Source of the DNA: a virus
Taxonomy: Duplodnaviria > Caudoviricetes
Length of the DNA: 31,006 bases
IMG/VR virus record: IMGVR_UViG_3300037484_001948
Span: 1-31,006 of that record
Direction: 5' to 3' (one strand)
The notes under the pieces are model-generated. The model did no database searches. It was not told where the DNA came from and saw only the letters and a program-made list of their open reading frames with translations. A program made the translations under genes and the position numbers. Shown piece after piece: positions 3,212 through 23,989 of this stretch. Every line of letters starts with the position of its first letter. Position 1 is the first letter of the stretch.

Positions 3212-3273
3212 AGATATAAAAAAAACCACGCTATTTGGGCGTGGTTAAATTACCTTATATATAAATTATAACA
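3212..3273 (-). promoter_or_regulatory. promoter-attenuator cassette E1
   Basis: TGtTATAAT-ttatatata-aGGT AATTTA ACCacgc-ccaaata-GCGTGG + U-tract-atatct-ATG. Confidence 0.85.
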
Positions 3274-3274
3274 C

Positions 3275-3961
3275 TTATCTATATAGCCTATTGCGGATTA
3301 TATCCATCAAAGCCTTAAGTTGACCTTTATTAGTATATTCTGTGTGAAGATGGGGTGCCGTAGACATTCCCGAACTTCCCTCTCTCATTACAGCCGAGCC
3401 TGTTGCTACTTCACTTCCTGATGGAAGTGGTGTATCTGCTCCATGACCAAGTAATGCCACATTTTCATACTTACCTAAAGAGGGAAAATCTTGCAATGAG
3501 TTAGCAGTTGGCAGGTATTGTTGAAATTCGTTAACTAGATTTTGTTTTTCTTCCGGCGCCATTTGAGCCAACTCTTGAGGATTAGCACCGACTATTGCAG
3601 TAACGTTTCCGTATCCTCCTGGCTGATAACCTGATAATACAAGTCCTCCAATAGCAGCTCTTATCTCATCTTCTGTAGTTGGCGTGCCATATTCAGGGTT
3701 TCGTATGTATGCTAGGTCTTCTCCCGCATGCCCGCCGGTTGAGGGATAGTTTTGAGGGTTTTCCCCTATTCCTTGTGTTTTGACAACTTGATCGTTGGCA
3801 AATGGCGATACAAAATCTGGAGGCTGACTAGGCGACTGAGGGGTAGGTGCTGGTTCAGGAGTGTAGTTCATGACCTTAAGTTCAGGGTTCTGGCTTAAAA
3901 ACTCCTGTATTTCCTGATCGGTATAATATTTTCTGGCTTCTCCGTAGTTGAAATATGCCAT
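3275..3961 (-). CDS. M23-family metallopeptidase (probable virion-associated cell-wall hydrolase)
   Basis: HAGED (HxxxD) and GSSGMSTAPHLH (HxH) zinc-ligand motifs. Confidence 0.8.
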   Translation of the reverse strand: MAYFNYGEARKYYTDQEIQEFLSQNPELKVMNYTPEPAPTPQSPSQPPDFVSPFANDQVVKTQGIGENPQNYPSTGGHAGEDLAYIRNPEYGTPTTEDEIRAAIGGLVLSGYQPGGYGNVTAIVGANPQELAQMAPEEKQNLVNEFQQYLPTANSLQDFPSLGKYENVALLGHGADTPLPSGSEVATGSAVMREGSSGMSTAPHLHTEYTNKGQLKALMDIIRNRLYR

Positions 3962-4018
3962 ATACTAAAAAACCCCGACACATCGGGGTTAATTTACCTT
4001 AATAGTTTAATTATAACA
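3962..4018 (-). promoter_or_regulatory. promoter-attenuator cassette E2
   Basis: TGtTATAAT-taaactatta-aGGT AAATTA ACCccga-tgtg-TCGGGG + U-tract-agtat-ATG. Confidence 0.85.
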
Positions 4019-4023
4019 TTTTG

Positions 4024-4032
4024 TGCTATAAT
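4024..4032 (+). promoter_or_regulatory. putative plus-strand extended -10 promoter (antisense to 4073..4261)
   Basis: TGcTATAAT, back-to-back with the E2 promoter. Confidence 0.4.
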
Positions 4033-4072
4033 TAAGGCGGAGGGATTTTTATACTTCTAAAAAGAATATATC

Positions 4073-4261
4073 TTATCTGCATTCTGGTAATGAAACTGTA
4101 GCAGCAATTCCTTTAATTTTTAATTGAAGATTAAGATTGTCTGTTATTATTTTAAATTCTTGACATCTTATCTCTTTCTTTTCATTCCGACCAGCAATAT
4201 AGCTAATAATTGCCATTATCATTCCAATTACAACAATAGTTTTTAAACAATTGTTTTTCAT
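4073..4261 (-). CDS. small single-TM protein, moron-like
   Basis: 62 aa, AT-rich, N-terminal hydrophobic helix; TATAAT 6 nt upstream of the ATG. Confidence 0.55.
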   Translation of the reverse strand: MKNNCLKTIVVIGMIMAIISYIAGRNEKKEIRCQEFKIITDNLNLQLKIKGIAATVSLPECR

Positions 4262-4300
4262 ATAAGAATTATACTAAAAATAGAAGTCAAGTAGTATTTT

Positions 4301-6700
4301 TTACTGACTTAAAGGATTATTCTCAATACTCGGTAAATATTCAGGCACTCCTGCTGTATTTTGCATATAATCCTGCATGCTTGATATGAACGAGCTTATT
4401 CTTTCTTTTAAAATGGGGGTGGGTAGGCTAAAGTCAAAAGTAAAATCAAGAAGGCTCTCAATCTCTTTATCTGACATATTAGCGCCTAACAAGGCATTTC
4501 TTGCTGCTGTTCTGGCAATAGCGATTTTTGACTTAAGGATAGTTATGTTTTTATCCTGTTGTCCAGTAAACTCCATACCTTTACTTACTAATGATTTTAA
4601 CGGCCCCGACTCAACTCCCTTATCAAGAATATTCAAAGCCGCCTGAGCCTGACGACCTGCAAAGTCAAACTTTTTATCAACTTCAGTTAAATCTTTTTTA
4701 CCCGCTTTTTTTTGATCGGCTTGGTATTTTACTTCAGTATCATATAGCTTTTTAATTCTTTCTGCATTAACCTCATCGCCAGCCATCACGGCATCGCTGT
4801 ATGCTTGGCCTAGCTCTTCTACAGTATGACGTGTTATATTTGGTAATTGACCATTGACAGGAGGTTGTAGACCTGTTACAATACCGTCATGATTGAGGCC
4901 TACCTTAAAATTGGATTTGCCTGTTTCATAATCACCTCTATTGTCGGCATAATCATCACTCTTTGGCCCACCAGAAAGTAACTCAACCGATTTAATAATA
5001 CCCACATTTCTCAATACATCTTCTGGCCCACCAATTTCAGGCAATAATCCTTTCTTACCCGCACCTAAAAATTTAGATGATACTTCGGGTCTTCCACCTA
5101 TTGCTTGAGCAGGTGCTGAAAACCACGTTGTTGGTTTTGTTAAGTCCAACTGTCCCAAGCCTAACCGTAAAGACGATCCTTGTGTGTTGGAAATAGCCCT
5201 AGCTCTATTTAAAACTGGCCGCAATGTAAGCACTTCCTCTTGTGTTCGCAAAGCATCGGCTAATTCAGGAAACATTTCTTTGATTGTATTTTTTAAAATA
5301 TTAGCTTCAAGTTTTTGGGATGCATTAGCAACAGCATCGGCAGCTGACACATCAACGATATTCTTACCAAACTTTTCGTTAGCATATCTTAGTATCTTGA
5401 TTGCTTGATTAAGGGAAACGCCATTTTTATATTTTTTTTCAACTTGTTTAATGATGGTTTTTATTGCTTGTGATCTGGTATCTCCTCCTAATTCTTTCTC
5501 AATAAGTCTCGCCTCTTTTTTTAAGGCTAAAAGTAAATCATCAGGTGAAATTCTAAAGTTAATACCTGCTGCCTTTGAGGTTGCTTGGATTTTTGTCTCT
5601 GCTGCATTTAAAATATCGTTTAAAACTCCACCTCTTCCTCTTTTTGAAATATCTCCAAGTACCTGATCGTAGCTTGTACCTTCGGGATAATATTTTTCAA
5701 TTAAAGCATTAATATCAACACCATGTTCTTCTAATGCTTTTTGCCATTGAGCAGGAGTTGCTTTTCCTATACCTTTAGCAACTTCTTTTGATATTGCCTC
5801 CCCAGGTTTTTTAGTTAAGTTTCTTAAAAACTTATATCCTGCTCCTGCTAACTCAAATGCTCCAGAAACTGCAGTACCTGTCAAAGTACCTCCAATAATT
5901 GAAGGTAATTCTTGTCCTTTTTCGCTTAATCCATATCCTGTCATCCCTCCTGTAAGACCACCTGCCAACATTCTGGTAGTAGTTGATCCGCCACCTGGGA
6001 CAAAAAACGCTGCAGTACCAACTCCGCCCTTAACAACATCCTCCGTTCCTTTTTCAGCCTTGGTTTTTGTCGTTTCTACATTTCTCTGAGTATATTGACC
6101 CATTCTCGAAGCTATCTTTTGGTTTTCCTGAAGAAGTCTTTGAGCTTGTTCTTTTTTGCCTTGTTCCTCTAACGTTCTTGCCAATACTAGGTTTTTTCTT
6201 ATCTGCTCCTGATCTGTTTTCATCATTGAGTTTACCGCTCCTTGGTCTTTTGCAACGTCATACGTTCCACCTAGTCCCTTACCAAACCTCTTTGGAGCAG
6301 AGAATATACCGCCTACAAAATCCATTGCTCCCTTACCTAGATTAGTTAAAAAACTGCTTGATCTAACCTGTGCCTCAGGATCAAACGAAGCTGAACTGTC
6401 GGCTTCAACAAAGCTATTAAATGCTGGTTTTGGTGTTGGTGTTGGTTGGAAATATGAAGATACTGGTTTGTCCGGTGTTTTATTCTTTGCATCATAATAA
6501 GCCTTAAACTCACTTGACATTGAAGGATTTTTCATAATATCCTCAGCCTGATTGCCTGAAGGTGATAAAGGTTGGGTTGAAAGCATCTGTTTATATGCTG
6601 CAGTTAAACCATATTGGGATAGATCATCCGGATTAACTGTTCTAGTTTCACCAGATTCTAAGTTCCTTATTTCAACTTGTCCATTTGGTAGTATTTTCAT
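4301..6700 (-). CDS. large internal virion / DNA ejection protein
   Basis: 799 aa, largely helical, with a Gly/Ala-rich hydrophobic central segment; position after the tail genes matches podovirus ejection proteins. Confidence 0.55.
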   Translation of the reverse strand: MKILPNGQVEIRNLESGETRTVNPDDLSQYGLTAAYKQMLSTQPLSPSGNQAEDIMKNPSMSSEFKAYYDAKNKTPDKPVSSYFQPTPTPKPAFNSFVEADSSASFDPEAQVRSSSFLTNLGKGAMDFVGGIFSAPKRFGKGLGGTYDVAKDQGAVNSMMKTDQEQIRKNLVLARTLEEQGKKEQAQRLLQENQKIASRMGQYTQRNVETTKTKAEKGTEDVVKGGVGTAAFFVPGGGSTTTRMLAGGLTGGMTGYGLSEKGQELPSIIGGTLTGTAVSGAFELAGAGYKFLRNLTKKPGEAISKEVAKGIGKATPAQWQKALEEHGVDINALIEKYYPEGTSYDQVLGDISKRGRGGVLNDILNAAETKIQATSKAAGINFRISPDDLLLALKKEARLIEKELGGDTRSQAIKTIIKQVEKKYKNGVSLNQAIKILRYANEKFGKNIVDVSAADAVANASQKLEANILKNTIKEMFPELADALRTQEEVLTLRPVLNRARAISNTQGSSLRLGLGQLDLTKPTTWFSAPAQAIGGRPEVSSKFLGAGKKGLLPEIGGPEDVLRNVGIIKSVELLSGGPKSDDYADNRGDYETGKSNFKVGLNHDGIVTGLQPPVNGQLPNITRHTVEELGQAYSDAVMAGDEVNAERIKKLYDTEVKYQADQKKAGKKDLTEVDKKFDFAGRQAQAALNILDKGVESGPLKSLVSKGMEFTGQQDKNITILKSKIAIARTAARNALLGANMSDKEIESLLDFTFDFSLPTPILKERISSFISSMQDYMQNTAGVPEYLPSIENNPLSQ

Positions 6701-6707
6701 TTAATTA

Positions 6708-7466
6708 TTAAGTCCAACCCGTCATTTTTCCCGTTTGGGTATTATATAAAGCTGAACTTCCTGTTGGCATAGCTGAATATTTAGATTGATTATCAATCTT
6801 ATATCTTTCCGCCTCCGCATTAATCTTTGCCGTTTCAATAGCTTTCTTATAATCCAACTCCGCCCTTGCATAAGCCTGTAATTCTTGGTATTCAACAGTA
6901 GATAGCTGAACACCTAATGATAGTTTTTGCAAGTATCCAGTAAGTTTAGATTCCATTTCGGTAGTGAATCCGGTATTTTCCCGTGCCCAGCGATCAACCA
7001 TAAACTCCCTCTCATAAGTAAAAGGCGTCATTAAGCGTTCACGCTCTGCCTGTTCAATACCCATTCTGTTTGATAGTTCTCCTTCTGCACTTGTCAGTCT
7101 ATTGCCTACGGCATTAACAACCGGCGCCAACTCTGATGATTTTTGACCGATAGTTCGCTCCAGTTGGTTTGCATTAACATCAAAGCCTTTTGTGGCTTCG
7201 CCGAAGGTGTAGGGAATATTTTGTAACGTAGTCTGTAATTGGCCATAGTTTTGCCTTAGTTGTGGCAACCCTAACTCTTCGCTTATTCTCTGGTTTAATA
7301 CAGGCAATGCTTCCTGTCCTCCAAGTCCTTGTCTAAATCTTGTTAACCAGTCATCTCCTTCAGTTTTTTGTCCTCCGTAAAATGATTGTCTTGTTCCTGT
7401 ATAACCGCCTAAGAAATTATTTAAGTCTGTAGAGTAGCGGTTTATGTCTGTATTAAGAGTTGCCAT
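6708..7466 (-). CDS. putative ejection/internal virion protein
   Basis: 252-aa helical Gln-rich protein; assigned by synteny. Confidence 0.5.
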   Translation of the reverse strand: MATLNTDINRYSTDLNNFLGGYTGTRQSFYGGQKTEGDDWLTRFRQGLGGQEALPVLNQRISEELGLPQLRQNYGQLQTTLQNIPYTFGEATKGFDVNANQLERTIGQKSSELAPVVNAVGNRLTSAEGELSNRMGIEQAERERLMTPFTYEREFMVDRWARENTGFTTEMESKLTGYLQKLSLGVQLSTVEYQELQAYARAELDYKKAIETAKINAEAERYKIDNQSKYSAMPTGSSALYNTQTGKMTGWT

Positions 7467-7527
7467 AATACTAAAAAAACCAGCCTTCTGGGCTGGTATA
7501 AAACTACCTAATAATTTAATTATACAC
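7467..7527 (-). promoter_or_regulatory. promoter-attenuator cassette E3 (variant loop)
   Basis: gtgTATAAT-taaattatt-aGGTA GTTTTA TACCagcc-cagaa-GGCTGG + U-tract-agtatt-ATG. Confidence 0.8.
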
Positions 7528-7532
7528 TATAT

Positions 7533-7817
7533 TCAAGTCAAGGTCTCAGTTACCCAAGCTGACCCGTTCCAGACACTTAGAACATTGGAATCTGTTGCAA
7601 AGAAAATTGGAGATCCCTGTAATGGTTCTTCTCCTGTTGTTGGACGTGCTGCTGCTAGACCTGACCTTATATAATTAACTCCTTCAGAAACGTGTCTTGA
7701 CTTTACGCATGAATTCATCAAATCAGTTTGTGTTATCCGTCTTGATTTCAATACTCTAACTTCATCCTCTAATCTGGCTACTTTTTGAATTAAATTGTAT
7801 ATCACTTGGTTTTCCAT
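7533..7817 (-). CDS. small tail-associated protein
   Basis: N-terminal coiled coil and a fibre-like C-terminal FFATDSNVLSVWNGSAW motif. Confidence 0.6.
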   Translation of the reverse strand: MENQVIYNLIQKVARLEDEVRVLKSRRITQTDLMNSCVKSRHVSEGVNYIRSGLAAARPTTGEEPLQGSPIFFATDSNVLSVWNGSAWVTETLT

Positions 7818-7818
7818 A

Positions 7819-10800
7819 TTATTTACCTACCTTTTTTTCCTCCTTGAGATCATCCCATTCCAAAGCTACGTTTTTTAATACAGGACTTGTTCCTGAAGTT
7901 GAGGCCAAATCAACGGCAAACTGGTGTTCTCTACATCGTCCGTCTGGTATTATAATCCTAGCCTCAGTTTCGTCTGCAGTTGTTACCGCTCCCAATGCCG
8001 TCCAGTCAGTATCACTATCTAGTTTATACTTAATATCTATGGATTGGCCTGATTCAAGAGGATCAAAGACGGCAAGAAGCGTATTAGCCCGCTGTTCTTT
8101 AAACATCATGTTGTTATCGTCAACCAAAAACTCAATCGTTCCATCACCAAAGCAGTCATTGTCAGCGTCAACATAATCTATCCCATATCCTACGTTATCC
8201 TGCCGGCCGATTAATAATTTCTTATTGACAACAGTCAGAAAACCTATTTTTACTCCCGTACTTGTTCTTGTTCCGGTTGAAATGGGGTAGTCATAAGTTA
8301 AGGCGTCAGGATAGCGGATATTCTTTTTGCCGAAAGTATAAACTCCTCTTTCAATTTCTGTCGAATCTCCTCCGCCTGCTACACCAATACGCATTAAAGA
8401 CTTCCAAACTGTTATAGCCTGCGGTAAAACCTCAACGTATTTATTCTCGGTAGTTTTAGGAATTTTTGTTGCAGGTTCAAACTCACCGCCGTTAAATTTA
8501 AGTATCTCTCCTTGGTAACCTACTACTGCATATAACTTATCCTTTGTCCCGCATAGGGCATTAACTCCACCTTCGGGAACATCCCTGAAAAAGTTATAAG
8601 TTGGAGCTATCCCGTCCCAAAAATATACACGTCCTTGGTCAGTATCGTATATATTGCTTCCCCTTGTAACGCCTATAGCTAAAAACTCCTGCCAGTAGCC
8701 ATAACACCGCACCCTATATCCCGCCGGTAAGACAATTTTATTTGGTTCATAGGTAGTTGCTTCGTATTTTGCTATATACCGCTCATTTCCAATTACCAAA
8801 AACTGTAACATTTTAGCCATAGGATGGAAAGCCGTATCCTCAACTAAAAACTGGTAGTAAGTCCTGTATGAAACAGTTGACAGATCGTTTAGATCAGTCG
8901 TTGTTACTGTTCCGTCAGCTACAGTTGATGTTACGTGAAAATGATAAGTATTTGTAAAGTTTGTAATAGGGCGCCAGACCGTGTCAAAAACAAACTCGGT
9001 ATAGTCTCCGACCGTTATGTTGGCATTGGCTAATGTTTTTGAGGCAACCGTATTATTATATTGGTCATGGACGGTTAAAGTCCAATTGCCTGTGCCTTTA
9101 GCTACCACTAAAACTGCAACAGACTTTTGCGGATCTTTAGCCGGTGTAAATGTTTTTCTATTGGCTGCAGTTTCCGAGATCGTTGTTGCCAAAGTATAAG
9201 TATTGCCTGTAGTTGTTGCCGATTGGTCTATGTCAAGCCTTGTCGTAGGAGAAGGATAAGGAACGTCGGTTGAGAAAACAGGCGATCCTGATGCCGTTAA
9301 GTCATTACTATTGCTTGTTGCATCGGCATAGTCTCCATTGAGGTTGTAATAAGCGACTAGTCCAGGAGTGGCTGACGGTATTTGCTGGTTTATTCCTAAA
9401 CTAAAATCATCTTGAGATCTGGCTGTATTGAATACCCTTACCTCATCAATCAACCCGTCAAAAAAGTTAGCTGCATCTCCGGCATCGTCTTTACTCATCC
9501 CTACCTGAAAGGTGGCGCTATTTGAGTCAATAGACGCAGCAGTACAGGCTACGGTTCCCAAAGATACGCCGTTTAGATAAAAAGTAGCCTCATTATCGGT
9601 AAAATTAAGAGAGACCGCTACATGTTGCCAACTATCAGTTACAAGACTTGCAGTTTTAGATAATGTTTCTACCGCCGTTCCATCATCTGAAACTAAAAGC
9701 CTTAATTGGTAAGAATCGGTTGATGCCGCTAACGAGTTGTCTTGTGTTGCGTCTATAGTTGGAGTTGTGGTTCCTGTGTAGGAAGTGTAGTAGTCAATAT
9801 GAATCCGTCCCGATCCGCCATTTCCTCCATTCTGTAAGCCGCCTGATTTTGTCCCGCCCGTTCCGCCTGATGCGGTAATTCTTGTTGTTCCTAACGTTCC
9901 CGTTTGTGTTTTAAGAAGAATTGATCCTCCCGCACCTCCTCCTCCACCGGCAAGCTCCCAGGTTGAAGAATACTCGCCGCCGTTTCCTCCGTTTGCAGAA
10001 ATTAATCCGGCCGCTCCCATTGTCAGGGTGGTTGCTGTGATAAAAACAATCCCTCCTCCCGATCCGCCTGCTCCTATTGCCTCGCTTGTTGTTCCTCCAT
10101 TATTCCCGTCATTTGCCCCACCTCCTCCTCCACCGCCAAATAATATAGAGGTTAAATCAGCTGATCCTGTAATAGTAGTGGCGCCTGCTCCGATAATTGA
10201 CCCTGAATCGGCAGGATATGGAGCCTTGTTACCGCTTACCCCAACTGTCGCATTAGAGCCTCCGCCACCGCCTGCTCCTCCACCTTCACCCCAGCAGTAT
10301 CCGGCGCCACCACCAGAGCCGTTTGCCGCTGTAGCGTTATCTGTCGTACTCCATCCACCTAAATCACCCTCGCCCCTGTTTCCGTAAACGGCTGTAACCT
10401 GCGCCCGTGCCATACCTCCCCTAAAGCCTCCGCCTGAAGTATAAACTGCGGTATAGGTTCCGTAAGAATTTGTATAAGTGCCGTTTGAGCCGGAAGCTGA
10501 TATTGTTCCGTTAACCGTAACCGTTCCTGAGGCTAAAAAGGCTAGTATCCCTCCCACTGTTCCGTTCCATGCCTTAGCCGTCCACGTTACTCCCGCATTA
10601 ACCGTTACGTTGGTATATTCTTTTAAGACCAAAACCTGAGCGCCAGTTGAGTATGTAGCATTAAGGGTGGTTTCAAGGGTAATTGTCCCTGCCGTATAGG
10701 CTTGAATCTTGTTTCTCATCCGTGTTCCCGCTCCTGTTCCTTGGGACTGGTGGATAAATATAACCTGACCGGCAGCAAATGAAGTGTTTGTAGCTGAAAG

Positions 10801-11550: not shown

Positions 11551-11551
11551 T

Positions 11552-12508
11552 TTAGGTTAGGGTAGTGGCCCAAACTTTATAACTTAAAGATTGTGTTTTT
11601 GGTTTTCTTTGGATTAGGCGCTGGTTATTGCGGTCGGCGTAATCCTTCATCAAACCAATCAAACCTCCGGCAACGTCTTTATCTCCTTCTTTTCTTGAGT
11701 TATTATTCCCGTCTCCTGTCCAAGACTTGTTATTCCACCATGTGGCTGTCGTTATATCGCTTCTCATTCCTGCGTAGTAGTCAGAGGCGGTGCCGTCAGC
11801 TAAAATAATATGTCCTTCCTCTGGAATTTCAGGTGACTGGCCTATTTTGTAAGACAGGGAAGATGCAGTTGCTCCCTCAAAACCATTCTCAAGAGTGATT
11901 GTTGTAGCGTTAGTGTAGCCCGCTATCCTGTAAAAGTAGCCTTCACCTGTATTGGTTGTAGAGGTTACACAAAACCAGCGTCCTGCCATAGCGGCAGTAA
12001 ATGCCGTGCCTGACCCTGTTATCGTAGTTGAGGCGTTTGTTGCAGTAACCGAGCCTGTTGTGTAATCCTCAACTGTTAAATTTCTATCTCTTAAGTGGTA
12101 GTTGAAAGTTATCGTATAAACAGCTTGCGGTATGGGCCAGATTCCAAAATCATCCCGCCTGGGATAGATAAACTGGGGGATAGTTGAGGCTTGGATGTCC
12201 ATTGCATTTAAGTTATCCCACGTAAATTGAGATGTTACGACAGATAGAGGGTAATTGACTGATCCGACAGTCACAACGCACCCCTCAACGTCAACGATGC
12301 CTGCTGGATAGTGGTAATATTGCTGGTCAGCGACAGTTGAGGCGGTTTTAGGCACCTGCGTCATGTAATTTCTCATCTTGGCCAATATCAATTGATACCT
12401 CTGTCCTAAATGAAATTTAAAGTCATTAATGATATTGGTATCGGAGCTTCCCGCCATACCGATATTTCGTAAATGTTGTTCTTTCAAGTCAGTATATGTA
12501 AGTCTAAT
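11552..12508 (-). CDS. head-tail adaptor-like protein (start uncertain)
   Basis: TVADQQYYHYP and GIWPIP...YTITFNY adaptor-like motifs. The frame is open to about 12511 with no ATG; candidate starts are TTG 12487 or ATT 12508. Confidence 0.6.
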   Translation of the reverse strand: MRLTYTDLKEQHLRNIGMAGSSDTNIINDFKFHLGQRYQLILAKMRNYMTQVPKTASTVADQQYYHYPAGIVDVEGCVVTVGSVNYPLSVVTSQFTWDNLNAMDIQASTIPQFIYPRRDDFGIWPIPQAVYTITFNYHLRDRNLTVEDYTTGSVTATNASTTITGSGTAFTAAMAGRWFCVTSTTNTGEGYFYRIAGYTNATTITLENGFEGATASSLSYKIGQSPEIPEEGHIILADGTASDYYAGMRSDITTATWWNNKSWTGDGNNNSRKEGDKDVAGGLIGLMKDYADRNNQRLIQRKPKTQSLSYKVWATTLT

Positions 12509-12514
12509 AGGTCA

Positions 12515-12673
12515 TCATTCTCCTTTCGCTATATTGGTAATTTTTAATATTAAAAATATCTTTTCATGCAATGCTCTATATCCAACAGTATCGCCTCTCC
12601 AATTCCAATTACCTACACCTGTCATTTTTCCCTTCCTATTTTCACTCATTTTCTTTTTGATCTCTTCTGGCCA
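12515..12673 (-). pseudogene. remnant of a NUMOD3-like homing-endonuclease N-terminus
   Basis: Translates WPEEIKKKMSENRKGKMTGVGNWNWRGDTVGYRALHEKIFLILKITNIAKGE*; no nuclease motif follows. Confidence 0.55.
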
Positions 12674-12674
12674 T

Positions 12675-12736
12675 AGATACAAAAAAAAGCCACCCGTTTG
12701 GGTGGCTTAAATTAGCCTAATAATTTAATTATATCA
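12675..12736 (-). promoter_or_regulatory. promoter-attenuator cassette E4
   Basis: TGaTATAAT-taaattatt-aGGCT AATTTA AGCCaccc-aaac-GGGTGGC + U-tract-gtatct-ATG. Confidence 0.85.
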
Positions 12737-12751
12737 TCTCCGATTGCTTGT

Positions 12752-13534: not shown

Positions 13535-13549
13535 ATTAAAAAGTTAGTC

Positions 13550-14950: not shown

Positions 14951-15012
14951 ATATAAAAAAGCCCCGCTGGTTAGCGGGGTAAATTCCCTTAATATCTAAT
15001 TTAATTATATCA
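14951..15012 (-). promoter_or_regulatory. promoter-attenuator cassette E5
   Basis: TGaTATAAT-taaattagatatta-aGGG AATTTA CCCcgct-aacc-AGCGGGG-c + U-tract-atat-ATG. Confidence 0.85.
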
Positions 15013-15540: not shown

Positions 15541-15779
15541 AAATCAACCTCAATCTCTTTTAATATGGCGTTAAAATCATCCTCCCAGTTGGTTTTTATA
15601 CCCCGCTCGTTTAAAATCTCATCCGCTAGATGTTTTTTTATAAAATTAACCTGATCAGGGGGAAAGTAAGTTATCTCTCCAGCCTTCATTGTCAGAATAT
15701 GAGGATCGTTGTTATCATCGAGCCATTTATAGGAAAAATCTCTATTCAGCGGATTGTACAGAGGTATTTTTTGGCTCAT
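15537..15779 (-). CDS. hypothetical protein
   Basis: 80 aa; ATGA overlap; YNP...W motif shared with 15963..16571. Confidence 0.65.
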   Translation of the reverse strand: MSQKIPLYNPLNRDFSYKWLDDNNDPHILTMKAGEITYFPPDQVNFIKKHLADEILNERGIKTNWEDDFNAILKEIEVDL

Positions 15780-15966
15780 TTATTGTCATTAAAAGTTCTA
15801 ATCTTTCTTCAATTTTTTCAAATCTTTTGCAAAGCATCTTAACAAGCTCCAGTATTTTCCTGTTGGTTATCATACCTGCAACATCTAAGCGTTTAATTGT
15901 TGCATCCCACTGGTTAGGTTCTACCCTTACGCCTAGTATTGTTGATGCTTCTTCTCTAATATTCAT
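15742..15966 (-). CDS. hypothetical protein
   Basis: 74 aa; AAGGAGGT SD; ATGA overlap. Confidence 0.6.
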   Translation of the reverse strand: MNIREEASTILGVRVEPNQWDATIKRLDVAGMITNRKILELVKMLCKRFEKIEERLELLMTINEPKNTSVQSAE

Positions 15967-16571
15967 TGTGATACCTCCTTTAATATTTCTTTCTTTTTAT
16001 TTTTATTAATAGGATAGGTTGCCTCTGGTTCTTTGACAATTTGTACTTCCTCTATCTTTTTAGCTGGCCTTTCCATCTCGTCCAGTATCTGTTCCTCAAT
16101 CGGCCGTCTGTCAACTACGCCGTCTCCTTCAACTTCAGGAGTGTCAATTAATCCAAACTCCTCCTCAACTCCAAGCCAACATATCTTATAGATCTTTCTA
16201 ATAAGCTCGGTATTATCCGTTCGTGGCGCTTTATCGTATAACTTCTGCTTCATGTAAGGATCGGCTAAAAACTCTGTTCTACTGACTTCAGCCATACCCT
16301 CAAGCATTTTTTGAACACTACCATCAGCCATCTCGTTAATCAGTTTGTTTTTGATTTCACGGACGTATTTTTCAGCTAAATAGCGGTACATTACTCGTTG
16401 TCCTTTTCCCCATCCCATATCCTTATCTTTATGAGGAACAATGTGCTTGAACTTATCCCAGTCTAATGTGTAGTCTTCTGATGTAGGGTTGTAAACTCTA
16501 ATGAGGTCTTGAGATTTGCGGTACATTTCCCGTTTTACCGCTTCCGCTTGCGCAGATTGGTTTTTATCCAT
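15963..16571 (-). CDS. hypothetical protein
   Basis: 202-aa ORF in operon context. Confidence 0.75.
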   Translation of the reverse strand: MDKNQSAQAEAVKREMYRKSQDLIRVYNPTSEDYTLDWDKFKHIVPHKDKDMGWGKGQRVMYRYLAEKYVREIKNKLINEMADGSVQKMLEGMAEVSRTEFLADPYMKQKLYDKAPRTDNTELIRKIYKICWLGVEEEFGLIDTPEVEGDGVVDRRPIEEQILDEMERPAKKIEEVQIVKEPEATYPINKNKKKEILKEVSQ

Positions 16572-16591
16572 AGTTTAAATTAACTTAAATT

Positions 16592-16774
16592 TTAACTGGC
16601 TGTTGAAACAGCTTCTGGTTTTGGTTGATTTTCCGGTAATAATTCAGGATTTTTAATATGTTTTTGTAGCTTAATGACAATAGGGATAACGACTTGAGCG
16701 TTTTTCAAAGAATAGGTAAGCTGAAAAAGAAGGCTAACGATTATCTTTAGCTCATCTTCGCTTAGTTCTACCAT
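16592..16774 (-). CDS. hypothetical small protein
   Basis: 60 aa; TATAAT 9 nt before the ATG. Confidence 0.55.
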   Translation of the reverse strand: MVELSEDELKIIVSLLFQLTYSLKNAQVVIPIVIKLQKHIKNPELLPENQPKPEAVSTAS

Positions 16775-16811
16775 ATATAAATAATTATACTTTTGGCGCC
16801 TTTTTTTGCTA

Positions 16812-17318
16812 TTAAGAAGTTGATGCTGTTACATCTCCATCTGTTGACCACGGAACCCATAGACAGTAATAATCTATCACACCACTTTCTATATCTGCTC
16901 CTCCGGCAATAGTCATAATAATATCTTGTCCGTTTAAGGCATATTCTGGAAAATTATCAGCAGCGGCTGCTTGTTCTCCTAATATAAGATACGCTCCAAC
17001 TGTTGCATTATTTGCTACAAAATCCCCTGCATTTATGTCCGCAGCTGCCTCAGTAGGTAGATAAATGGTGGTTGCTCCTGCTATTCCAACGGCGTGCGTG
17101 CCTGATCCTGCTAAGTTCGTAGTACATATACCAAAAACTCTTGCACGAATAACACCAGTAATGGTAAAAATAGCAGCACCATCTAAAGCGCCTCCATCAT
17201 TTCCCCAAGCATCTGTAGTTGCACCTGCAAATGTTATTGTTTTTTTGGTAATAATTCCATCAGTCCAGACAGGAACACGATTTGCGTCTCTGTAAAAACT
17301 AGAACTTAGTGTAGCCAT
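16812..17318 (-). CDS. virion structural protein (beta-sandwich-like)
   Basis: 168 aa, Ala/Gly/Thr-rich; lies in the head region. Confidence 0.6.
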   Translation of the reverse strand: MATLSSSFYRDANRVPVWTDGIITKKTITFAGATTDAWGNDGGALDGAAIFTITGVIRARVFGICTTNLAGSGTHAVGIAGATTIYLPTEAAADINAGDFVANNATVGAYLILGEQAAAADNFPEYALNGQDIIMTIAGGADIESGVIDYYCLWVPWSTDGDVTASTS

Positions 17319-17319
17319 A

Positions 17320-17553
17320 TTAGTCTTTTAATTTAACTTTTATTAATTTAATGTTTCCTGTTTTTTCATAGACCTTATGTAGTAAGTCCATAAACTCCAT
17401 AAAATGCTTTAAAGTATCAGGTGACAACGGATCGGACGATTGTGTAATTTTATAACTCATCAATCCATCCGTATTAAACTCACATTCTCCTTTAATAAAG
17501 ATGTTACCTTCAGTCCCTGCATTAAATTCGTAATTATGAGTATAAATTGACAT
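17320..17553 (-). CDS. hypothetical protein
   Basis: 77-aa ORF packed tightly between neighbours. Confidence 0.6.
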   Translation of the reverse strand: MSIYTHNYEFNAGTEGNIFIKGECEFNTDGLMSYKITQSSDPLSPDTLKHFMEFMDLLHKVYEKTGNIKLIKVKLKD

Positions 17554-17577
17554 AGCTAAATTTGGATTAGTAACTCA

Positions 17578-17612
17578 CACCTGTTCTCCAATCGTCATTG
17601 AAGAACAAAGTG
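17578..17612 (-). other. intergenic long RNA hairpin without U-tract
   Basis: CACTTTGTTCTTCAAT-GACG-ATTGGAGAACAGGTG; the mismatches become G-U pairs on the minus strand. Confidence 0.6.
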
Positions 17613-17624
17613 AATAAATAATTA

Positions 17625-18632
17625 TTAAGTTGATCGACCTGTCAGTGAACCAAATGTTCCAACAGCATCTGTTGACTCCTGATAATTTCCTGCCATAAAC
17701 ATGGTAGCAGGAACGATTCCACCAGAACCTGCTACTTTAAATGTTCCATCATTAGTAGCAAATGCGTTGTTATATAAGATTCCTACAGAACCAGTCAAAG
17801 AAACAAATCTCTTAACTTGTCCTGCTGACAAAGCTGGCATAGCTGAAAAAGTATTATCTCTAATTACTAAGCCATTTACTCCGTCCGAACTTGTATAGAT
17901 GTTTACATCAACATTTGCGGCTGGCCCTGAAAATTCATTATGTTCAATCACCCAATCCTGAGGGATTGAACCACTTGTTCCAACAGATACAATATCTGCC
18001 TCATTTTTATAGAATCGGTTTCCACCGATATATAATTGCCAAGGACCACCGCCTGCGGTTGTATAAATAGCTCCGCCAGTTCTTCCATCATTGGCAGTAA
18101 CTACGCAGTTTTTAAAATGACATCCAACAATGCTTGTTCCAAAAGCTGCTGCTGTTGATCCACCATCATCATACAATCTAACTCCTCCACCCGTTGCGCT
18201 TACTCCATTAATTCCGATATTGGCAATAAGACAACCGGGCGCTTTAACATCAATAACAGGACTAGTTGTGGTCGATCCCACTTTTAATTGCGGAAGTCCA
18301 CCCTGCGTCCTACCTCTTGAAACTCCGATTAATGAAACGCTTGGAGTATCTAAAACAGCGTTTTCAGTATATGAAACTGGGTCAGTTGAAGTTGCAGACA
18401 TTGTTCTTGCCGCAACAAAAATTGTATCGCCCGCTGTTAAAGAAGTGTTATTGGCGGCACTCTCTACATCATAAAAAGCATCTTCCCAAGAAGTACCGCT
18501 TCCATTGGCTGATTTATCTCCGTCTACAAACCAATATTTATTAGTATCATTCATCGAAAATACTCCAGCTAAATCCTCTGGATACCATTTTGCTCCGTAC
18601 TTTACGGCTGGCATAAAATCTCTCGCTTTCAT
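17625..18632 (-). CDS. right-handed beta-helix (pectin-lyase-like) virion protein
   Basis: FVDG...GSGTSWEDAF and AGDTIFV cap motif; repeated I-x-x-N-x-F coils. Confidence 0.7.
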   Translation of the reverse strand: MKARDFMPAVKYGAKWYPEDLAGVFSMNDTNKYWFVDGDKSANGSGTSWEDAFYDVESAANNTSLTAGDTIFVAARTMSATSTDPVSYTENAVLDTPSVSLIGVSRGRTQGGLPQLKVGSTTTSPVIDVKAPGCLIANIGINGVSATGGGVRLYDDGGSTAAAFGTSIVGCHFKNCVVTANDGRTGGAIYTTAGGGPWQLYIGGNRFYKNEADIVSVGTSGSIPQDWVIEHNEFSGPAANVDVNIYTSSDGVNGLVIRDNTFSAMPALSAGQVKRFVSLTGSVGILYNNAFATNDGTFKVAGSGGIVPATMFMAGNYQESTDAVGTFGSLTGRST

Positions 18633-18643
18633 AATATTTTTTT

Positions 18644-18732
18644 AATTCTTTTAGGCTCCTGAATTGATGTAATCTTCTCGTCAACCCTAAAAGGAATTTA
18701 TAATTTGTTGGGGCGGGCTTTTCATCCGCCCC
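18644..18732 (-). other. two intergenic stem-loops between the decoration and beta-helix genes
   Basis: GGGGCGG/CCGCCCC stem at 18710-18732, and CTTTTAGG/CCTAAAAG stem pairing 18644-18655 with 18686-18698. Confidence 0.55.
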
Positions 18733-18746
18733 TTGTTTTTGTATTG

Positions 18747-19484
18747 TTACGGTAAATTCAAGTTAACTGGAATAACCACGCCACTTGAAAGTGCTCTCAT
18801 AGCATGACCGACTGTATTACATTTTCCTGTCCCTGCTACGTTCACTCCAACCGTTCCTGCTGTTGCTCCCGGAACTCCAACATCGCTACCGACTGCGCCT
18901 GTTGAGTTATCTGACAAAATGCCAACTACTCCTTTGGTTTGAACCCATCCATATTCGCCTGAAGCGACTGGATAAATACAAACACCAACTGGAGTACCAG
19001 TTAAGGTTGTTGGACATTTTAAAATTCCACTATAAGGGCTTCTCCTCATGGTTACTTTTGAAGCTGCAACTGTGAGTGCGACCCTAATTGGTCTATCAAG
19101 TTGAAGCGTCAAAGTTGTCCCGCTTGTTGACGTGTCATGTCCAATGATTGTAAATTCCTGTCCCAATCCTGGAGTAACTGACACAGTTGCTGTGCCTCCT
19201 ACAAACTGTCCTGCGGTTACTGATGTCGTACCACTAACAATTTTGAGTTGAGTGTCGCCAATTGCACCTGCAGCGTAAAGAGTCATGCTGTCAAATTGTG
19301 TATCCACAACTGACGATTGCATAATATCTCCAACGACTCCAAGTTCACCAAACAATGCATACCTAAATGCCTTTCCGTATTTTCCCTTTACTTCCTGCCC
19401 CAACTCATAGTTATAGTTTGGTTGAGTGCTTGAGCTGTAAAGATCGGCAGTTCCTATGGTTGCCGTACCTGTTAAATTAGCCAT
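18747..19484 (-). CDS. capsid decoration/cement-like protein
   Basis: Directly after the major capsid gene; GKAFRYA and GEYGWVQTKG motifs. Confidence 0.6.
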   Translation of the reverse strand: MANLTGTATIGTADLYSSSTQPNYNYELGQEVKGKYGKAFRYALFGELGVVGDIMQSSVVDTQFDSMTLYAAGAIGDTQLKIVSGTTSVTAGQFVGGTATVSVTPGLGQEFTIIGHDTSTSGTTLTLQLDRPIRVALTVAASKVTMRRSPYSGILKCPTTLTGTPVGVCIYPVASGEYGWVQTKGVVGILSDNSTGAVGSDVGVPGATAGTVGVNVAGTGKCNTVGHAMRALSSGVVIPVNLNLP

Positions 19485-19517
19485 AATATTTAAAAATTAA
19501 ATTGATAATTAAAAACC

Positions 19518-20615
19518 TTATACTCCCGTAATTCCCGTTAACTTACCCTCACGTCTGAACCCTGAACCAACAACCTGACCGATAACATGGAAACGAGCAA
19601 TCATACCGGCCTGATTTGGGAGCATTTGAGGTTCTTGATAAAACCATCCGTTCCATTCTGAAGGCATATCCATTGCTTCAGCTCCAGTTCCCTCATAAGC
19701 CTTTTTCGTGCCTAAATTGACCTTAGAAACGGCTTCCTTATAATCATCTGGAACTACCGCACGACCTCTCCATTCGTAATAACCCTCGTTAAGAGCATGC
19801 CAATAACCCGAGGTGCAGAAATCATCTTTAATTACCGGTGCGCCTCTATATGAGAGTGCAGTAAAGCCTGCCGCATTCCGTAATTCTGCCTTGTTTCTGA
19901 CTAACCCTTTGCCACGAATGGCTAAAGCGTTATAACCAGCCTCGTTATATGAAGCTCTAACGTTTGGAGTTAACAGTTGCTCGTATAAGCTCCAAACAGT
20001 TTTTGTAGTGTCATGGATATTCGGTTCATCGTTAGCAATTCCGGCAGCTGATACTGCGTCATGTAATGTTGCTAATTTTGCCAAAGTCAAAGTTCCTCCT
20101 GCTGAGGTAACTGTGGCATTCAAAACCGAATAGGTTGTCCTTGATTGGCCACCGATTGATCCTGAGTCAAGAACAATGTTACCAAGACCATTTGGCCTGT
20201 TGGCCGTTCCATCAAGATAGACTGTTGATCCAAACTTTTGGAGAGCCTCAGCCGCAGCCTTCTCATACTTGAAAGCATCAAGTGGAATAGTTGCAGTTGA
20301 ACCAGTGTTGGCAAAACTCTCCAACATGATGGAAACTTTAGGCTGTGTGAATGCAGTGTGAGCATAAGACAAGGTGATTGTCGTACTAACTGCCGCTGAA
20401 TTGAGAGTTTCCAAGCCTGTATAAAACTCTCCTTGAGTATCAGAAACCACATCAATCTCCACATCCTCGGTTTTACCCAAGAATGGTTTACCCATACCTA
20501 ACACTCGTGAAAAATAGGTAGGTGCGCTGAGAACGTTATCAACGACTTTTGCATGGAGTTTACGTTCATTAAAACCCTCTACTCTTTGACCATGCTGTAT
20601 TCCGTCATAAGCCAT
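19518..20615 (-). CDS. major capsid protein
   Basis: 365 aa after portal and scaffold; YLDGTANRPNGLGNIV...GGQSRTTY, LTLAKL and YRGAPVIKD features of HK97-fold capsids. Confidence 0.8.
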   Translation of the reverse strand: MAYDGIQHGQRVEGFNERKLHAKVVDNVLSAPTYFSRVLGMGKPFLGKTEDVEIDVVSDTQGEFYTGLETLNSAAVSTTITLSYAHTAFTQPKVSIMLESFANTGSTATIPLDAFKYEKAAAEALQKFGSTVYLDGTANRPNGLGNIVLDSGSIGGQSRTTYSVLNATVTSAGGTLTLAKLATLHDAVSAAGIANDEPNIHDTTKTVWSLYEQLLTPNVRASYNEAGYNALAIRGKGLVRNKAELRNAAGFTALSYRGAPVIKDDFCTSGYWHALNEGYYEWRGRAVVPDDYKEAVSKVNLGTKKAYEGTGAEAMDMPSEWNGWFYQEPQMLPNQAGMIARFHVIGQVVGSGFRREGKLTGITGV

Positions 20616-20735
20616 AAGATTAAAAATTAATTAATAAAAAAACCCGCCACGATGGGCGGGTTAAATTACCCTAAATACTAAAAAAGGCCACCCTTGTTGG
20701 GCGGCCTAAATTTGACCTATACTTAAATTATACCA
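20616..20735 (-). promoter_or_regulatory. tandem promoter-attenuator cassette E6a+E6b
   Basis: TGgTATAAT-ttaagtat-aGGTC AAATTTA GGCCgccc-aacaa-GGGTGGCC-U6-agtattt-aGGGT AATTTA ACCCgcc-catcgt-GGCGGG-U7...ATG. Confidence 0.85.
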
Positions 20736-20753
20736 CAGACGCCTTTTATCAAA

Positions 20754-21587
20754 TTATTTTTCTAAAGCTATATCGACAAATGATTTTTCCCCTGATTTTC
20801 CGTGAACGTCCAAATAGCTGTAATCGTCATCATTTTTAGATGGAGGAGTACCGCCTCCGCCTGGGGATACCGGCGCATCATCTCCTGCTGGTTGATCTGG
20901 AGCTTGGTAATGCTCGTAAAATATCTCTTTTATTGAAGTGATAGCAGTTTTACCTTCTGTAATACGCTTTTTATTGACCTCCATCATTGTTTCAAACAGT
21001 TTCTTTCTGCAAACTAAGCCATAATCGTTCTTATCATCTTTATCCTTAATCCTAGGCAGTTTATTGGCTGCATGTAAATCTTCAAGCTGTTCGTCTATAT
21101 ATTTATTAAAGGCTTTTTTGTAGTTTTCCTGATATTCTTTAGTTTTTGTTTCCTTCTCTTTATTGGCTTTTTCTTCTACTTCTTTTGTCCGTCTATCCAA
21201 TATTTCTTTTTTCTTAACACTCCAATCGGCAATTTCATCATAATCTTTAGGATTTCTGTTTTCTTTTTTCCAAGGTGACACAAGCTCTTGGTCAGGATCA
21301 TCTTTGTCTTTATCTTCGCCAACCAAAGCTCTGACTATCTTCTCAGTTGTTGCATGTGATATATCCTCTTTTAATTTTTCTGGATCAATTGCGGGCTTTT
21401 CAGGTTCTTTTTCCAGTTCTTCTTTATCTTTCAGCGGGGTTTTCTTATCCTCGTCTTCAGAAGGGGTTTCTTTATCGTCTTTTGGAGTTTCTGGAGTTTC
21501 CTCAATAAATTCTGCAGCCTGACCTTCTCTGATTTTATTAACTTCCTCTACTGCTGTAGGTTGTTTTTCTTCCTTTTTTTTCGCCAT
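20754..21587 (-). CDS. capsid scaffolding protein
   Basis: Highly charged helical protein between portal and capsid genes. Confidence 0.65.
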   Translation of the reverse strand: MAKKKEEKQPTAVEEVNKIREGQAAEFIEETPETPKDDKETPSEDEDKKTPLKDKEELEKEPEKPAIDPEKLKEDISHATTEKIVRALVGEDKDKDDPDQELVSPWKKENRNPKDYDEIADWSVKKKEILDRRTKEVEEKANKEKETKTKEYQENYKKAFNKYIDEQLEDLHAANKLPRIKDKDDKNDYGLVCRKKLFETMMEVNKKRITEGKTAITSIKEIFYEHYQAPDQPAGDDAPVSPGGGGTPPSKNDDDYSYLDVHGKSGEKSFVDIALEK

Positions 21588-21654
21588 AACTTTGGTTAAA
21601 AAATAATAATAGTAAATTCCTTACTTATAATATAATTATAGATTTTGCGCTTTT

Positions 21655-23664
21655 TTACATCATTCTCGGACTACCTGCTGGTGGTCCTGTTGGTATAGCG
21701 GGAACTCCTGACGTATTTTGCGGTGATGGTATGGTAGGTGCTGCGCCTCCTGTGGGTGCCGGTGCGACTGATGCAACAGGTGGAGTTGGCGGTTGGGCTG
21801 CTAAATTCATTGCTAAAGCCTGTGCTGATCCGCCTTTGTTTAATATATATTGAGCCATATAATTTGCAGGCATTGCTTGGAAGGTAAGTAATCTTTCTGC
21901 TCTGCCTACTGGATCAGGTAAACCTAAGTCCTCAAATAACGATACAGGATCAATCATTTGCATTTTAGCAAGTTCTAGCGCATTTCTTTGTGCTTTGAGT
22001 TTGTCTGTTCCTGACGCTTTAATCATTACTTCCATCCCGTCCTCGATCATATCGTGGCATACTTTGACAAACGTTATTTCTCCTTTTGCTCCAAGTATCT
22101 TTCTAAAGTGGTTTTCCGTATAGCGGAGTTTAATCATGTGCAAATCCCAGTCTGCAATCCACTCACAGGCTGCATTAATCGTATCCTCAACCAAGTCATC
22201 TGCTCTAGTGAAGTTGTTTTCTCTAGCTATCTGGTTATTGGTTGCAACATCTGATTGTAACTCACCCCTTACGGCTGTTGCTCCTGCCACTCCATACATT
22301 CTTTCCCTGGTATCATTTAAGTCCTTAAACTCCTGAGCTGATGGCTGTTCCGGTCTGATCTCGCCATGAACCTTACTGACGTCACCATCAACCAATAAAT
22401 CCTGTTTAGGATCGTCCAAGTCCATATTCTCAATATCGTCAGCCTTAAGTCCTGATTCTTTTGAGAATATGTGCTTAATTCTTTGGGCAAGTTTATCGAG
22501 TATTGACTTACCACGTTTGTCAAGGTTTTCCTGATTTCTTGTGTTCTGTTCAATACGTGAGGTTTCGTCATATGCTATTTTATGCCACTGATCGTAACCC
22601 ATAAAAAAGTAAGGTTTTCTAGGCCTACTAAAATAATTTCTATAGACCATCTCCTCACTTATTCCTTGAGGTGTTTGGCCTGTCATTACAGCCATCATTA
22701 TTTCTTCTTCAGAAATTTCTCGTTTAGTTGACTCATCTGACGGATCTTCCAGCATAAAATATTTTTTCTCACCTTCATAATCAAAGTTCGGGTTCTTCAT
22801 CTTCTCCAAAACAACAGTGTCATATTTCCATAAGACCGCCGTTATCTTCTCATACTCTTGTTTACCCTCTTTGTCTTTTCCTTTCTTCTCCTTATACCAG
22901 TCAAACCAAACCTCTTTTATTTTAATCTCGGTTGCCATCTCTGACTTTTCAGGCTCACCATCTTTATTGGTAATTACTCCCTGATCCCTTAGTTTTTTAA
23001 TTAATTCATCTTTTTTCTTGGGAAACTTCAAAACACACTCTTCAACTGTAATAGGAATCGTTTGTGCTATCCACTTCATCTTATCTGCATCATTTATTGG
23101 GCAAGTCTGATCTAAATCAATAAAATCAGGATGTACTACCTCAAAGATAAAATCATCAAGCTCCTTGTCCCATTTGACTTTAATTACTCCAGTAAAGTAA
23201 GCGGGCAGATGTTTAAAAGCTACCCCTAAAACTGTTCTCGTGTTTCTTTTTTTTATGTCTGTGTCAATCACTTTTGATACGTCTTTAGCAATAGTCTTTG
23301 ACTCTTCAGTGTTGTTGCCTGGAGTTACAATCATGTCAGGTAAGCGGGACATAGCCAGAGGCTTAATAGAGGCTTCGGTTTCGTATATTACATTGTCTAA
23401 ATATTTTGCCTCGTACTTTTTTAGATCGTCCTCATTGATTTGACGTCCAAATAAAAACTTCTCATTCTTTTCTCTGCGTTCATAAAGTTTGTATTTATCC
23501 TTAAAAAACTTACGGGAGTCTTTTATCCTTTTATCAATAATATCTGTTAAGTCTTTGTCTGGGATGTCAAGAGAAAGAGGAGAGGCTTTTTCAACTATTC
23601 CATCGTCATTTATCTGCTTATTATCAACTAGTTGTTGGTTTGTTGGAGATTCATTATCTGCCAT
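21655..23664 (-). CDS. portal protein (podovirus/P22-like size)
   Basis: 669 aa downstream of the terminase; helical, with GVIKVKWD and a Pro-rich tail. Confidence 0.8.
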   Translation of the reverse strand: MADNESPTNQQLVDNKQINDDGIVEKASPLSLDIPDKDLTDIIDKRIKDSRKFFKDKYKLYERREKNEKFLFGRQINEDDLKKYEAKYLDNVIYETEASIKPLAMSRLPDMIVTPGNNTEESKTIAKDVSKVIDTDIKKRNTRTVLGVAFKHLPAYFTGVIKVKWDKELDDFIFEVVHPDFIDLDQTCPINDADKMKWIAQTIPITVEECVLKFPKKKDELIKKLRDQGVITNKDGEPEKSEMATEIKIKEVWFDWYKEKKGKDKEGKQEYEKITAVLWKYDTVVLEKMKNPNFDYEGEKKYFMLEDPSDESTKREISEEEIMMAVMTGQTPQGISEEMVYRNYFSRPRKPYFFMGYDQWHKIAYDETSRIEQNTRNQENLDKRGKSILDKLAQRIKHIFSKESGLKADDIENMDLDDPKQDLLVDGDVSKVHGEIRPEQPSAQEFKDLNDTRERMYGVAGATAVRGELQSDVATNNQIARENNFTRADDLVEDTINAACEWIADWDLHMIKLRYTENHFRKILGAKGEITFVKVCHDMIEDGMEVMIKASGTDKLKAQRNALELAKMQMIDPVSLFEDLGLPDPVGRAERLLTFQAMPANYMAQYILNKGGSAQALAMNLAAQPPTPPVASVAPAPTGGAAPTIPSPQNTSGVPAIPTGPPAGSPRMM

Positions 23665-23725
23665 ATAACAAAAAAACCCCGCACGTCATGCGGGGTTAAA
23701 TTACCCTAACAATTTAATTATATCA
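23665..23725 (-). promoter_or_regulatory. promoter-attenuator cassette E7
   Basis: TGaTATAAT-taaattgtt-aGGGT AATTTA ACCCcgca-tgacg-TGCGGGG-U7-gttat-ATG. Confidence 0.88.
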
Positions 23726-23973: not shown

Positions 23974-23989
23974 TAATTATATTTTACGT

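Follow-up and report, generated by a model that had tools for sequence, protein, structure and literature searches.

What kind of element precedes the virion genes in the IMG/VR virus record IMGVR_UViG_3300037484_001948, and what would open it? The window, i.e. the whole stretch of DNA analysed (31,006 nucleotides (nt)), is a partial phage record of 31 kb. An earlier note described on its minus strand seven intergenic regions in which a host-type promoter is followed by a hairpin and a U-tract, and proposed that each promoter makes by default only a terminated RNA of about 40 nt. These elements are here called gates. According to comparative analysis they are real, non-random and conserved, and likely represent protein-dependent attenuation applied to phage virion genes; the regulator, a small zinc-ribbon protein named Zn81 here, is a proposal.

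Eight units were found at the seven sites, every one on the minus strand, with the coordinates and architecture described in the earlier note. TGnTATAAT is present in six of the seven regions, the exception being 7467-7527 with GTGTATAAT. The distance from TATAAT to AGG is 8-14 nt, the U-runs comprise 6-8 residues, and the ATG follows after 4-6 nt, or after 20 nt at the capsid gene. The 'AGG..AATTTA box' is also present, but it is not a plain box: it corresponds to the 5' arm and loop of a mini-hairpin of 3-4 bp, termed P1. The 3' arm of P1 is the bottom of the 5' arm of the terminator, and the two pairings are thus mutually exclusive. All window leaders are predicted to fold into the terminator by default (z -2.4 to -4.3). 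A structural descriptor detected seven promoter-linked units on the minus strand and none on the plus strand, versus a mean of 0.005 and a maximum of 1 in 200 dinucleotide shuffles, a contrast that is somewhat overstated because the descriptor was drawn from these same elements. A covariance model scan of the window revealed no additional promoter-linked copy.

Gate 1 (23665..23725, minus strand as all the following; TGATATAAT) lies 5' of the portal gene, with P1 at 23706-23693 (GGGT-AATTTA-ACCC), the stem at 23697-23675, U7 at 23676-23670 and the ATG at 23664. Two units precede the major capsid gene. Gate 2a (20680..20735; TGGTATAAT) has P1 at 20717-20703 (GGTC-AAATTTA-GGCC), a terminator and U6 at 20685-20680. 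Gate 2b (20616..20671) is a tandem unit without its own promoter, with P1 at 20671-20658, a terminator, U7 at 20642-20636 and the ATG at 20615, 20 nt on. Gate 3 (14951..15012; P1 14988-14977, U6 14960-14955) precedes a gene of 466 amino acids (aa) that has no family match and is a putative fibre or tail gene. Gate 4 (12675..12736; P1 12717-12704, U8 12688-12681) lies 5' of the adaptor module; the ATG after it opens a 10-codon open reading frame (ORF) only, and the adaptor gene, which seems to start with ATT or TTG, lies about 190 nt further downstream. Between them is an endonuclease-like remnant (12515-12682, minus strand) that resembles endonuclease-like ORFs of relatives, the best match (E 4e-8) being a gated gene of genome G016. 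Gate 5 (7467..7527; P1 7508-7495 with loop GTTTTA, U7 7479-7473) precedes a 252-aa core gene present in 16 of 16 genomes of the group, a putative ejection protein to judge from its position alone. Gate 6 (3962..4018; P1 3998-3987 with loop AAATTA, U6 3972-3967) lies 5' of an M23-peptidase-like gene, and gate 7 (3212..3273; P1 3254-3243, U8 3225-3218) 5' of a 107-aa gene and the fibre/CHAP-lysin block. The P1 arms of the eight units read GGGT/ACCC, GGTC/GGCC, GGGT/ACCC, GGG/CCC, GGCT/AGCC, GGTA/TACC, GGT/ACC and GGT/ACC, and the paired arms vary jointly (GGGT/ACCC, GGCT/AGCC, GGTC/GGCC, GGTA/TACC). The loop is AATTTA in five units, and AAATTTA, GTTTTA and AAATTA in one each.

Is the competing pairing conserved in relatives? 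Searches with portal, capsid and the patterns returned 176 loci; with the window included, these correspond to 116 clusters after merging at 93% identity. Of 130 sense leaders that combine a -10 box with a terminator, 109 contained P1; when the upstream parts were permuted 1000 times against the terminator arms, 54.2 +/- 4.4 of the 130 possessed it (maximum 68). Sense hairpins without a -10 box contained P1 in 30 of 74 cases, and antisense hairpins in 12 of 65. Where the terminator arm does not start with CC, the matching 5' arm of P1 was still found in 54 of 70 leaders. Among 77 aligned leaders, 83 cells had changed on both sides versus 35 in shuffled alignments (reached by 0 of 500 shuffles; 22 G-U/U-G cells), and both the P1 and the terminator helices showed more pairing and more double changes than any of 500 column shuffles; the rows of this alignment were picked for having P1, relatedness inflates the counts, and rows with 5-nt loops are one column off. 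An alternative layout with the whole P1 inside the terminator arm occurred in 6 of 130 leaders and in further cases of the gene-anchored survey described below. The proposal of a default-terminated leader of about 40 nt with a competing antiterminator is thus supported by the covariation of P1 with the terminator arm, by the predicted ground state and by the U-tracts. In its predicted pairing the antiterminator is mutually exclusive with an intrinsic terminator, as in protein-stabilised attenuators. Two exact patterns searched in IMG/VR occurred in this phage group only (3 loci; 12 loci in 5 contigs).

Termination has to be weighed against a block of translation. When no tail was required in the search, 95 of 99 promoter-P1-hairpin elements (53 clusters) had at least six T in the next 8 nt, and the four elements with weak tails all precede portal. 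The promoters look real, with a -35 match in 20 of 30 capsid gates and a TG extension in 78 of 100 other gates. In a mainly translational switch similar to Mu com/mom, the long hairpin would block the ribosome at a start without a Shine-Dalgarno (SD) sequence, and binding of P1 would shorten the hairpin. The scarcity of SD-like words (8 of 121 units) agrees with such a switch, as do stems of non-capsid genes that end a median of 11 nt before the ATG (n=72), the four weak-tailed portal units and the precedent of Com (PMC6483171). The capsid leader of genome G007 (34490-34640, locus L193) likewise forms a long hairpin, without a U-tract, in which the likely ATG is buried, and the leader of L134 is similar; this type is possibly a translational variant. 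However, strong U-tracts are kept in nearly all elements, the capsid stems end a median of 20.5 nt from the ATG (7-41 nt, n=30), tandem units exist in the window and in L022, and gate 4 lies far from the adaptor start. The capsid distances and tandem units suit transcription rather than ribosome blocking, and together with the U-tracts and the position of gate 4 the comparison favours termination as the common function, with a translational side effect or variant possible. A mainly translational switch appears clearly improbable.

Which genes are gated was surveyed by seeking hairpins upstream of genes under a strict rule, and not via motifs. A terminator-type hairpin precedes 72 of 77 capsid genes, 64 of which also have P1; of 101 portal genes, 47 have such a hairpin and 32 also P1. 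Many ungated late genes, including portal, scaffold and others, possess TGnTATAAT 6-8 nt before the ATG, apparently as leaderless promoters. At least one gate was present in 14 of 15 near-whole genomes, with a maximum of about seven and always on the sense strand, and in G013 capsid is the only gated gene. Gates with an assignable downstream gene precede virion genes, except for one atypical unit before terminase (G011). Among relatives, gates were gained and lost freely. The capsid gate is the conserved core, and the window genome extended gating to seven sites. The module-by-module late switch that had been proposed therefore fits the window genome, but many relatives gate capsid only. A near-perfect gate was also observed before a 47-aa ORF in locus L212 (about 1500-1555; G144:C1:7446-7500), on a contig without matches to proteins of these phages.

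What could open the gates? The P1 loop has an identity of 0.86 within genomes (exact in 44%) versus 0.63 between genomes (exact in 7%; 27 genomes, 116 pairs), with little effect in the spacer (0.49/0.43), upper stem (0.36/0.33) and terminator loop (0.34/0.30). Shared loops beside varying flanks and stems are what a site bound by a phage-specific factor would show, and not what simple duplication would leave. Loops fall into a 6-nt AAUUUA type, a 5-nt ACAYA type, a 5-nt AUUUA type and a 7-nt type. P1 by itself has a median of -2.75 kcal/mol, and the terminator state is favoured over the P1 state by a median of 6.2 kcal/mol (n=124), so something must hold P1. Quite probably, the attenuator is opened by some trans factor. 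Without a protein, P1 competition might set a constant level of read-through that adjusts the stoichiometry of the modules, or abortive 5' RNA might pair with the terminator arm in trans. This is in line with the position of the 5' arm of P1 near the start of the predicted transcript (within about 10 nt), with the free gain and loss of gates and with the precedent of abortive transcripts at T7 phi10/Tphi (PMC2952870). Nevertheless, it leaves a phage-specific loop of fixed length beside freely varying stems unexplained, the pairing comprises 2-4 bp versus 5-6 nt in T7, and P1 alone is worth only about -2.8 kcal/mol; we regard it as very unlikely.

The candidate P1-binding antiterminator is Zn81 (23728..23973, minus strand), an ungated 81-aa C4 zinc-ribbon ORF between terminase and portal. 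It ends two bases before gate 1, outside the coordinates given in the earlier note. On the same strand and directly upstream of portal it is present in 154 of 177 loci, and 18 of the 22 loci without a match are cut at the portal start. An own -10 box lies 5-10 nt before its ATG in 46 of 96 cases, versus 3 of 58, 3 of 62 and 5 of 67 in three other genes. The family is unnamed and comprises 245 clusters at 50% identity; apart from the cysteines, residues such as F34, Q45, Y46, G48, G56 and Y75 are conserved. Its predicted fold is an all-beta C4 zinc ribbon (predicted local distance difference test, pLDDT, 89.5). Tandem forms model as one rigid two-domain unit (pLDDT 97, predicted template modelling score 0.90), and from this tandem model Zn81 would probably act as a dimer. 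A second tandem form, with a first domain lacking most zinc cysteines, was found in L067, L070, L077, L079, L080, L172, L175 and L176. For both Zn models fold searches gave no clear match (Foldseek none at E 0.001; best VIA Z 2.6 and 2.3); the best match in a sequence search of the PDB had E 0.003, and NCBIfam gave no match. On the portal tree, the two branches where the loop class changes take ranks 2 and 3 of 50 in excess branch length of Zn81. On the discriminating branch the ranks of other genes are 10 of 37 for the major capsid protein (MCP), 20 of 40 for scaffold, 18 of 33 for Zn101 and 19 of 41 for TerL, and with matched taxa no control gene with at least three taxa in both clades is in the top 3 on both branches. 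One duplication of Zn81 arose on the ACAYA branch. If the attenuator is opened by a trans factor, Zn81 would be a fairly likely one.

Several observations weigh against Zn81 and against a general late switch. Loop class fits the Zn81, portal and MCP trees equally (9 versus 8 changes with 60 taxa; 6, 5 and 6 with 52 taxa), so that this test does not separate Zn81 from portal or MCP. The branch test comprises two events in an 80-residue protein, MCP, g202 and Zn101 likewise have a long ACAYA stem, and loop length does not change on the Zn81 branch ranked 1 of 50. G007 and MW202566 encode Zn81 but have no clear P1 gate. The protein is no more than mildly basic (median net charge +3), and library and fold searches linked it to no RNA-binding family or fold beyond a weak likeness to Com and Ogr. 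Scaffold likewise has its own leaderless promoter (33 of 68), related phages are non-independent samples, and the portal counts given above imply that tight late control of all modules is not general.

The same transcription gate could be served by another P1 binder: scaffold, Zn101, the g202/g80 family or an RNA-binding protein of the host that varies from host to host. In the scaffold variant, capsid synthesis would be coupled to free scaffold. Scaffold, Zn101 and the g202/g80 family are conserved like Zn81 (14-16 of 16 genomes), scaffold, itself ungated, lies immediately before the most conserved gate, and loop class follows all late-gene trees. On the other side, Zn81 alone is in the top 3 on both loop-change branches. 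Zn101, a second unnamed zinc-binding gene after GroEL (27052-27357, minus strand; 14 of 16 genomes), is retained in the complete TM7 phage, which has neither Zn81 nor gates. A search in metagenome-assembled genomes (MAGs) of the Woesebacteria class is also unfavourable: the exact pattern occurred in 0 of 401 and the covariance model in 4 of 151, where one match belongs to a fragment of the present phage group and another is a groEL terminator. These class-wide tallies include G084 (flagged unpublished), and no claim depends on G084 alone. In the genomes searched, the gate element is thus not a general host feature, and Zn81 was not found in the 401 MAGs either. A binder other than Zn81 is rather unlikely in our estimate.

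Control could also act on DNA, with the inverted repeat as operator for an Ogr-like or repressor protein, or with the loop as a sigma-pause element for a Q-like factor. The Ogr/Delta family PF04606 weakly matches 4 of 76 Zn81 members (best E 3e-4), the window Zn81 not being among them; the single and tandem forms of Zn81 recall Ogr and P4 delta, and 6-nt loops read xAxxxT. P2 Ogr and P4 delta are C4 zinc proteins, single or tandem, that control several late promoters and bind DNA upstream of weak promoters. In contrast, the promoters here are close to consensus, and what is conserved lies in the transcript and pairs as RNA. Within a single genome the half-sites are not identical, and G-U pairs occur in them; the 5-nt loops have no -10-like pattern, and no Q-family protein was matched among the 43 proteins of the window, a partial genome. 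Control at the DNA level is exceedingly unlikely.

For attenuation relieved by Zn81, we infer the following steps from the anatomy, exclusive pairing, covariation, phage-specific loop and Zn81 conservation, all of which are seen in the sequence. A host sigma70-type polymerase would start 6-8 nt after TATAAT, so that P1 is made first. Unbound P1 would yield to the stronger terminator, and the transcript would end at about 40 nt. Zn81, produced from its own ungated leaderless promoter, would capture the P1 loop while the polymerase is in the leader; P1 held in this way would remove the bottom 2-4 pairs of the terminator, leaving a short stem too distant from the U-tract. To overcome a gap of 6 kcal/mol at equilibrium, the factor would have to exceed its Kd about 10^4-fold, which makes kinetic capture more likely; the gate would then impose a delay, opening as the factor accumulates. 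We give an even chance to this model, in which transcripts terminate by default at about 39 nt and Zn81 relieves termination by capturing P1 during transcription. More tentatively, and somewhat short of probable, late control would work via a zinc-ribbon RNA-binding antiterminator of unnamed family and fold with a loop code of 5-7 nt that opens up to seven gates one by one, loop and protein having co-diverged into non-cross-reacting pairs (AAUUUA, ACAYA, AUUUA) that would form a natural set of protein-switched terminators of 40 nt.

Similar to the gates, the targets of ANTAR proteins (EutV, NasR, AmiR) include a small hairpin with a six-base loop that overlaps the 5' part of an intrinsic terminator, with several per locus, stems that matter by structure and loops that matter by sequence (PMC3369931). 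ANTAR targets consist of two hairpins whose loops carry A1 and G4, whereas here one P1 is present per terminator, the tandem capsid unit being two P1-terminator pairs. The loops here, AAUUUA or ACAUA, lack G4 (position 4 is nearly always U, C or A), and the gates serve phage virion genes. No ANTAR domain was found among the 43 window proteins or the 76 Zn81 members. BglG, SacY and LicT also stabilise an antiterminator exclusive with an overlapping terminator (PMC3369931). No CAT or PRD domain was matched with Pfam among the window proteins. The RAT element has about 30 nt with internal loops, whereas P1 measures 10-15 nt.

Mu Com is a small phage C4 zinc finger that binds a short six-base-loop hairpin beside an inhibitory hairpin and activates translation at one site with the motif CC(N)2-3GAG (PMC6483171). 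The loops here lack GAG, the long hairpin has a conserved U-tract and the site is repeated; unlike Com, Zn81 contains a spacer of 28 residues and one additional sheet at the N-terminus. An hhalign comparison of the two gave 61% over 32 columns, over the cysteines, and an Atlas feature match of 0.92 led to a cluster with 22% Com members, structure rows being below the bar. PF10122 (Com) is not among the families listed for the 76 Zn81 members. By analogy, the gates would work like ANTAR/BglG attenuation and resemble Mu Com in the hairpin target, but without the ANTAR loop and dual hairpin or the Com motif.

Like here, lambda Q at pR'-tR' (also AlpA and BrrG) is associated with a strong host-type promoter followed by an immediate terminator, and the gene of the candidate regulator here ends right before the first gate. 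Lambda N/boxB shares the phage-specific small hairpin. Q loads through DNA and N through nut sites, and both are processive; here every terminator has its own overlapping hairpin, which argues for local action, unlike Q and N. The earlier note did not recognise the elements as described; this stands for the RNA-level gate, but not for multi-promoter late control as such, which is already known from P2 Ogr and Mu C. Rfam 15 gave no match at the gathering threshold, the eight weak matches (best E 0.05, E up to 5) all being far below it. A literature search found no description of this gate. Nothing matching was found in the supplement parts searched of the Fremin 2023 virus RNA catalogue (PMC10690425), whose remaining files may hold the motif, or in the accessible text of Weinberg 2017 (PMC5737381).

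Known phage late switches use sigma factors, DNA-binding activators or processive antiterminators, and local RNA-hairpin capture is known from bacterial metabolic operons; the accessible text of a 2025 review of hairpin-capture proteins does not mention phages (PMC12591593). If true, the proposed switch adds a mechanism of late control and gives a function to an unnamed zinc-protein family. It would also give an initial view of gene regulation in phages that probably infect Patescibacteria, and very small switch and protein pairs testable in E. coli.

The host probably belongs to Patescibacteria, and is unproven. Four of seven matches in genome collections sit in MAGs labelled Patescibacteria, although binning errors occur; of the two GenBank relatives, one is a TM7 phage (portal identity 25%); and a fragment of this phage group bearing a gate lies inside a Woesebacteria-class MAG. 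These phages use a TGnTATAAT-N6-8-ATG style, of which Patescibacteria genomes contain 14-32 instances each versus 0-4 of the reversed pattern; it is not exclusive to such genomes, as a 5-Mb Brocadia MAG has 36 versus 8. Rho was found in 90 of 101 Woesebacteria-class MAGs, which is uninformative.

The main window genes are encoded on the minus strand in the order integrase, GroES/GroEL, small genes, terminase, Zn81, portal, scaffold, major capsid, tail-type genes, adaptor, M23-like and CHAP lysin genes. The gated portal protein (21655..23664, minus strand) was identified with tblastn against the annotated portal in MW202566 (26%, E 3e-46), the major capsid protein behind two gates (19518..20615, minus strand) by phrog_9953 (E 2.5e-19), and the SU10-type adaptor protein behind gate 4 (11552..12487, minus strand) by PF24175 above cut-off. 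GroES and GroEL are carried by the phage at 27650-29773 (minus strand), as in 11 of 16 genomes of the group. Between late modules, a moron-like, ungated 62-aa membrane-like ORF (4073-4273, minus strand) has a TTGACT...TATAAT promoter with the ATG 7 nt on. AAAARGCG lies 7-12 nt 5' of TATAAT at four late promoters of the minus strand (16784-16804, 20727-20747, 21635-21655 and 23976-24001), versus 0.03 expected for a pattern chosen post hoc; it was not found in relatives and is possibly a phage-specific DNA site. A strong plus-strand hairpin with a T-rich tail (18710-18732) lies within the late region and may stop antisense transcripts or mark a processing site; in relatives, a promoter-less hairpin was observed in a similar place, after g245.

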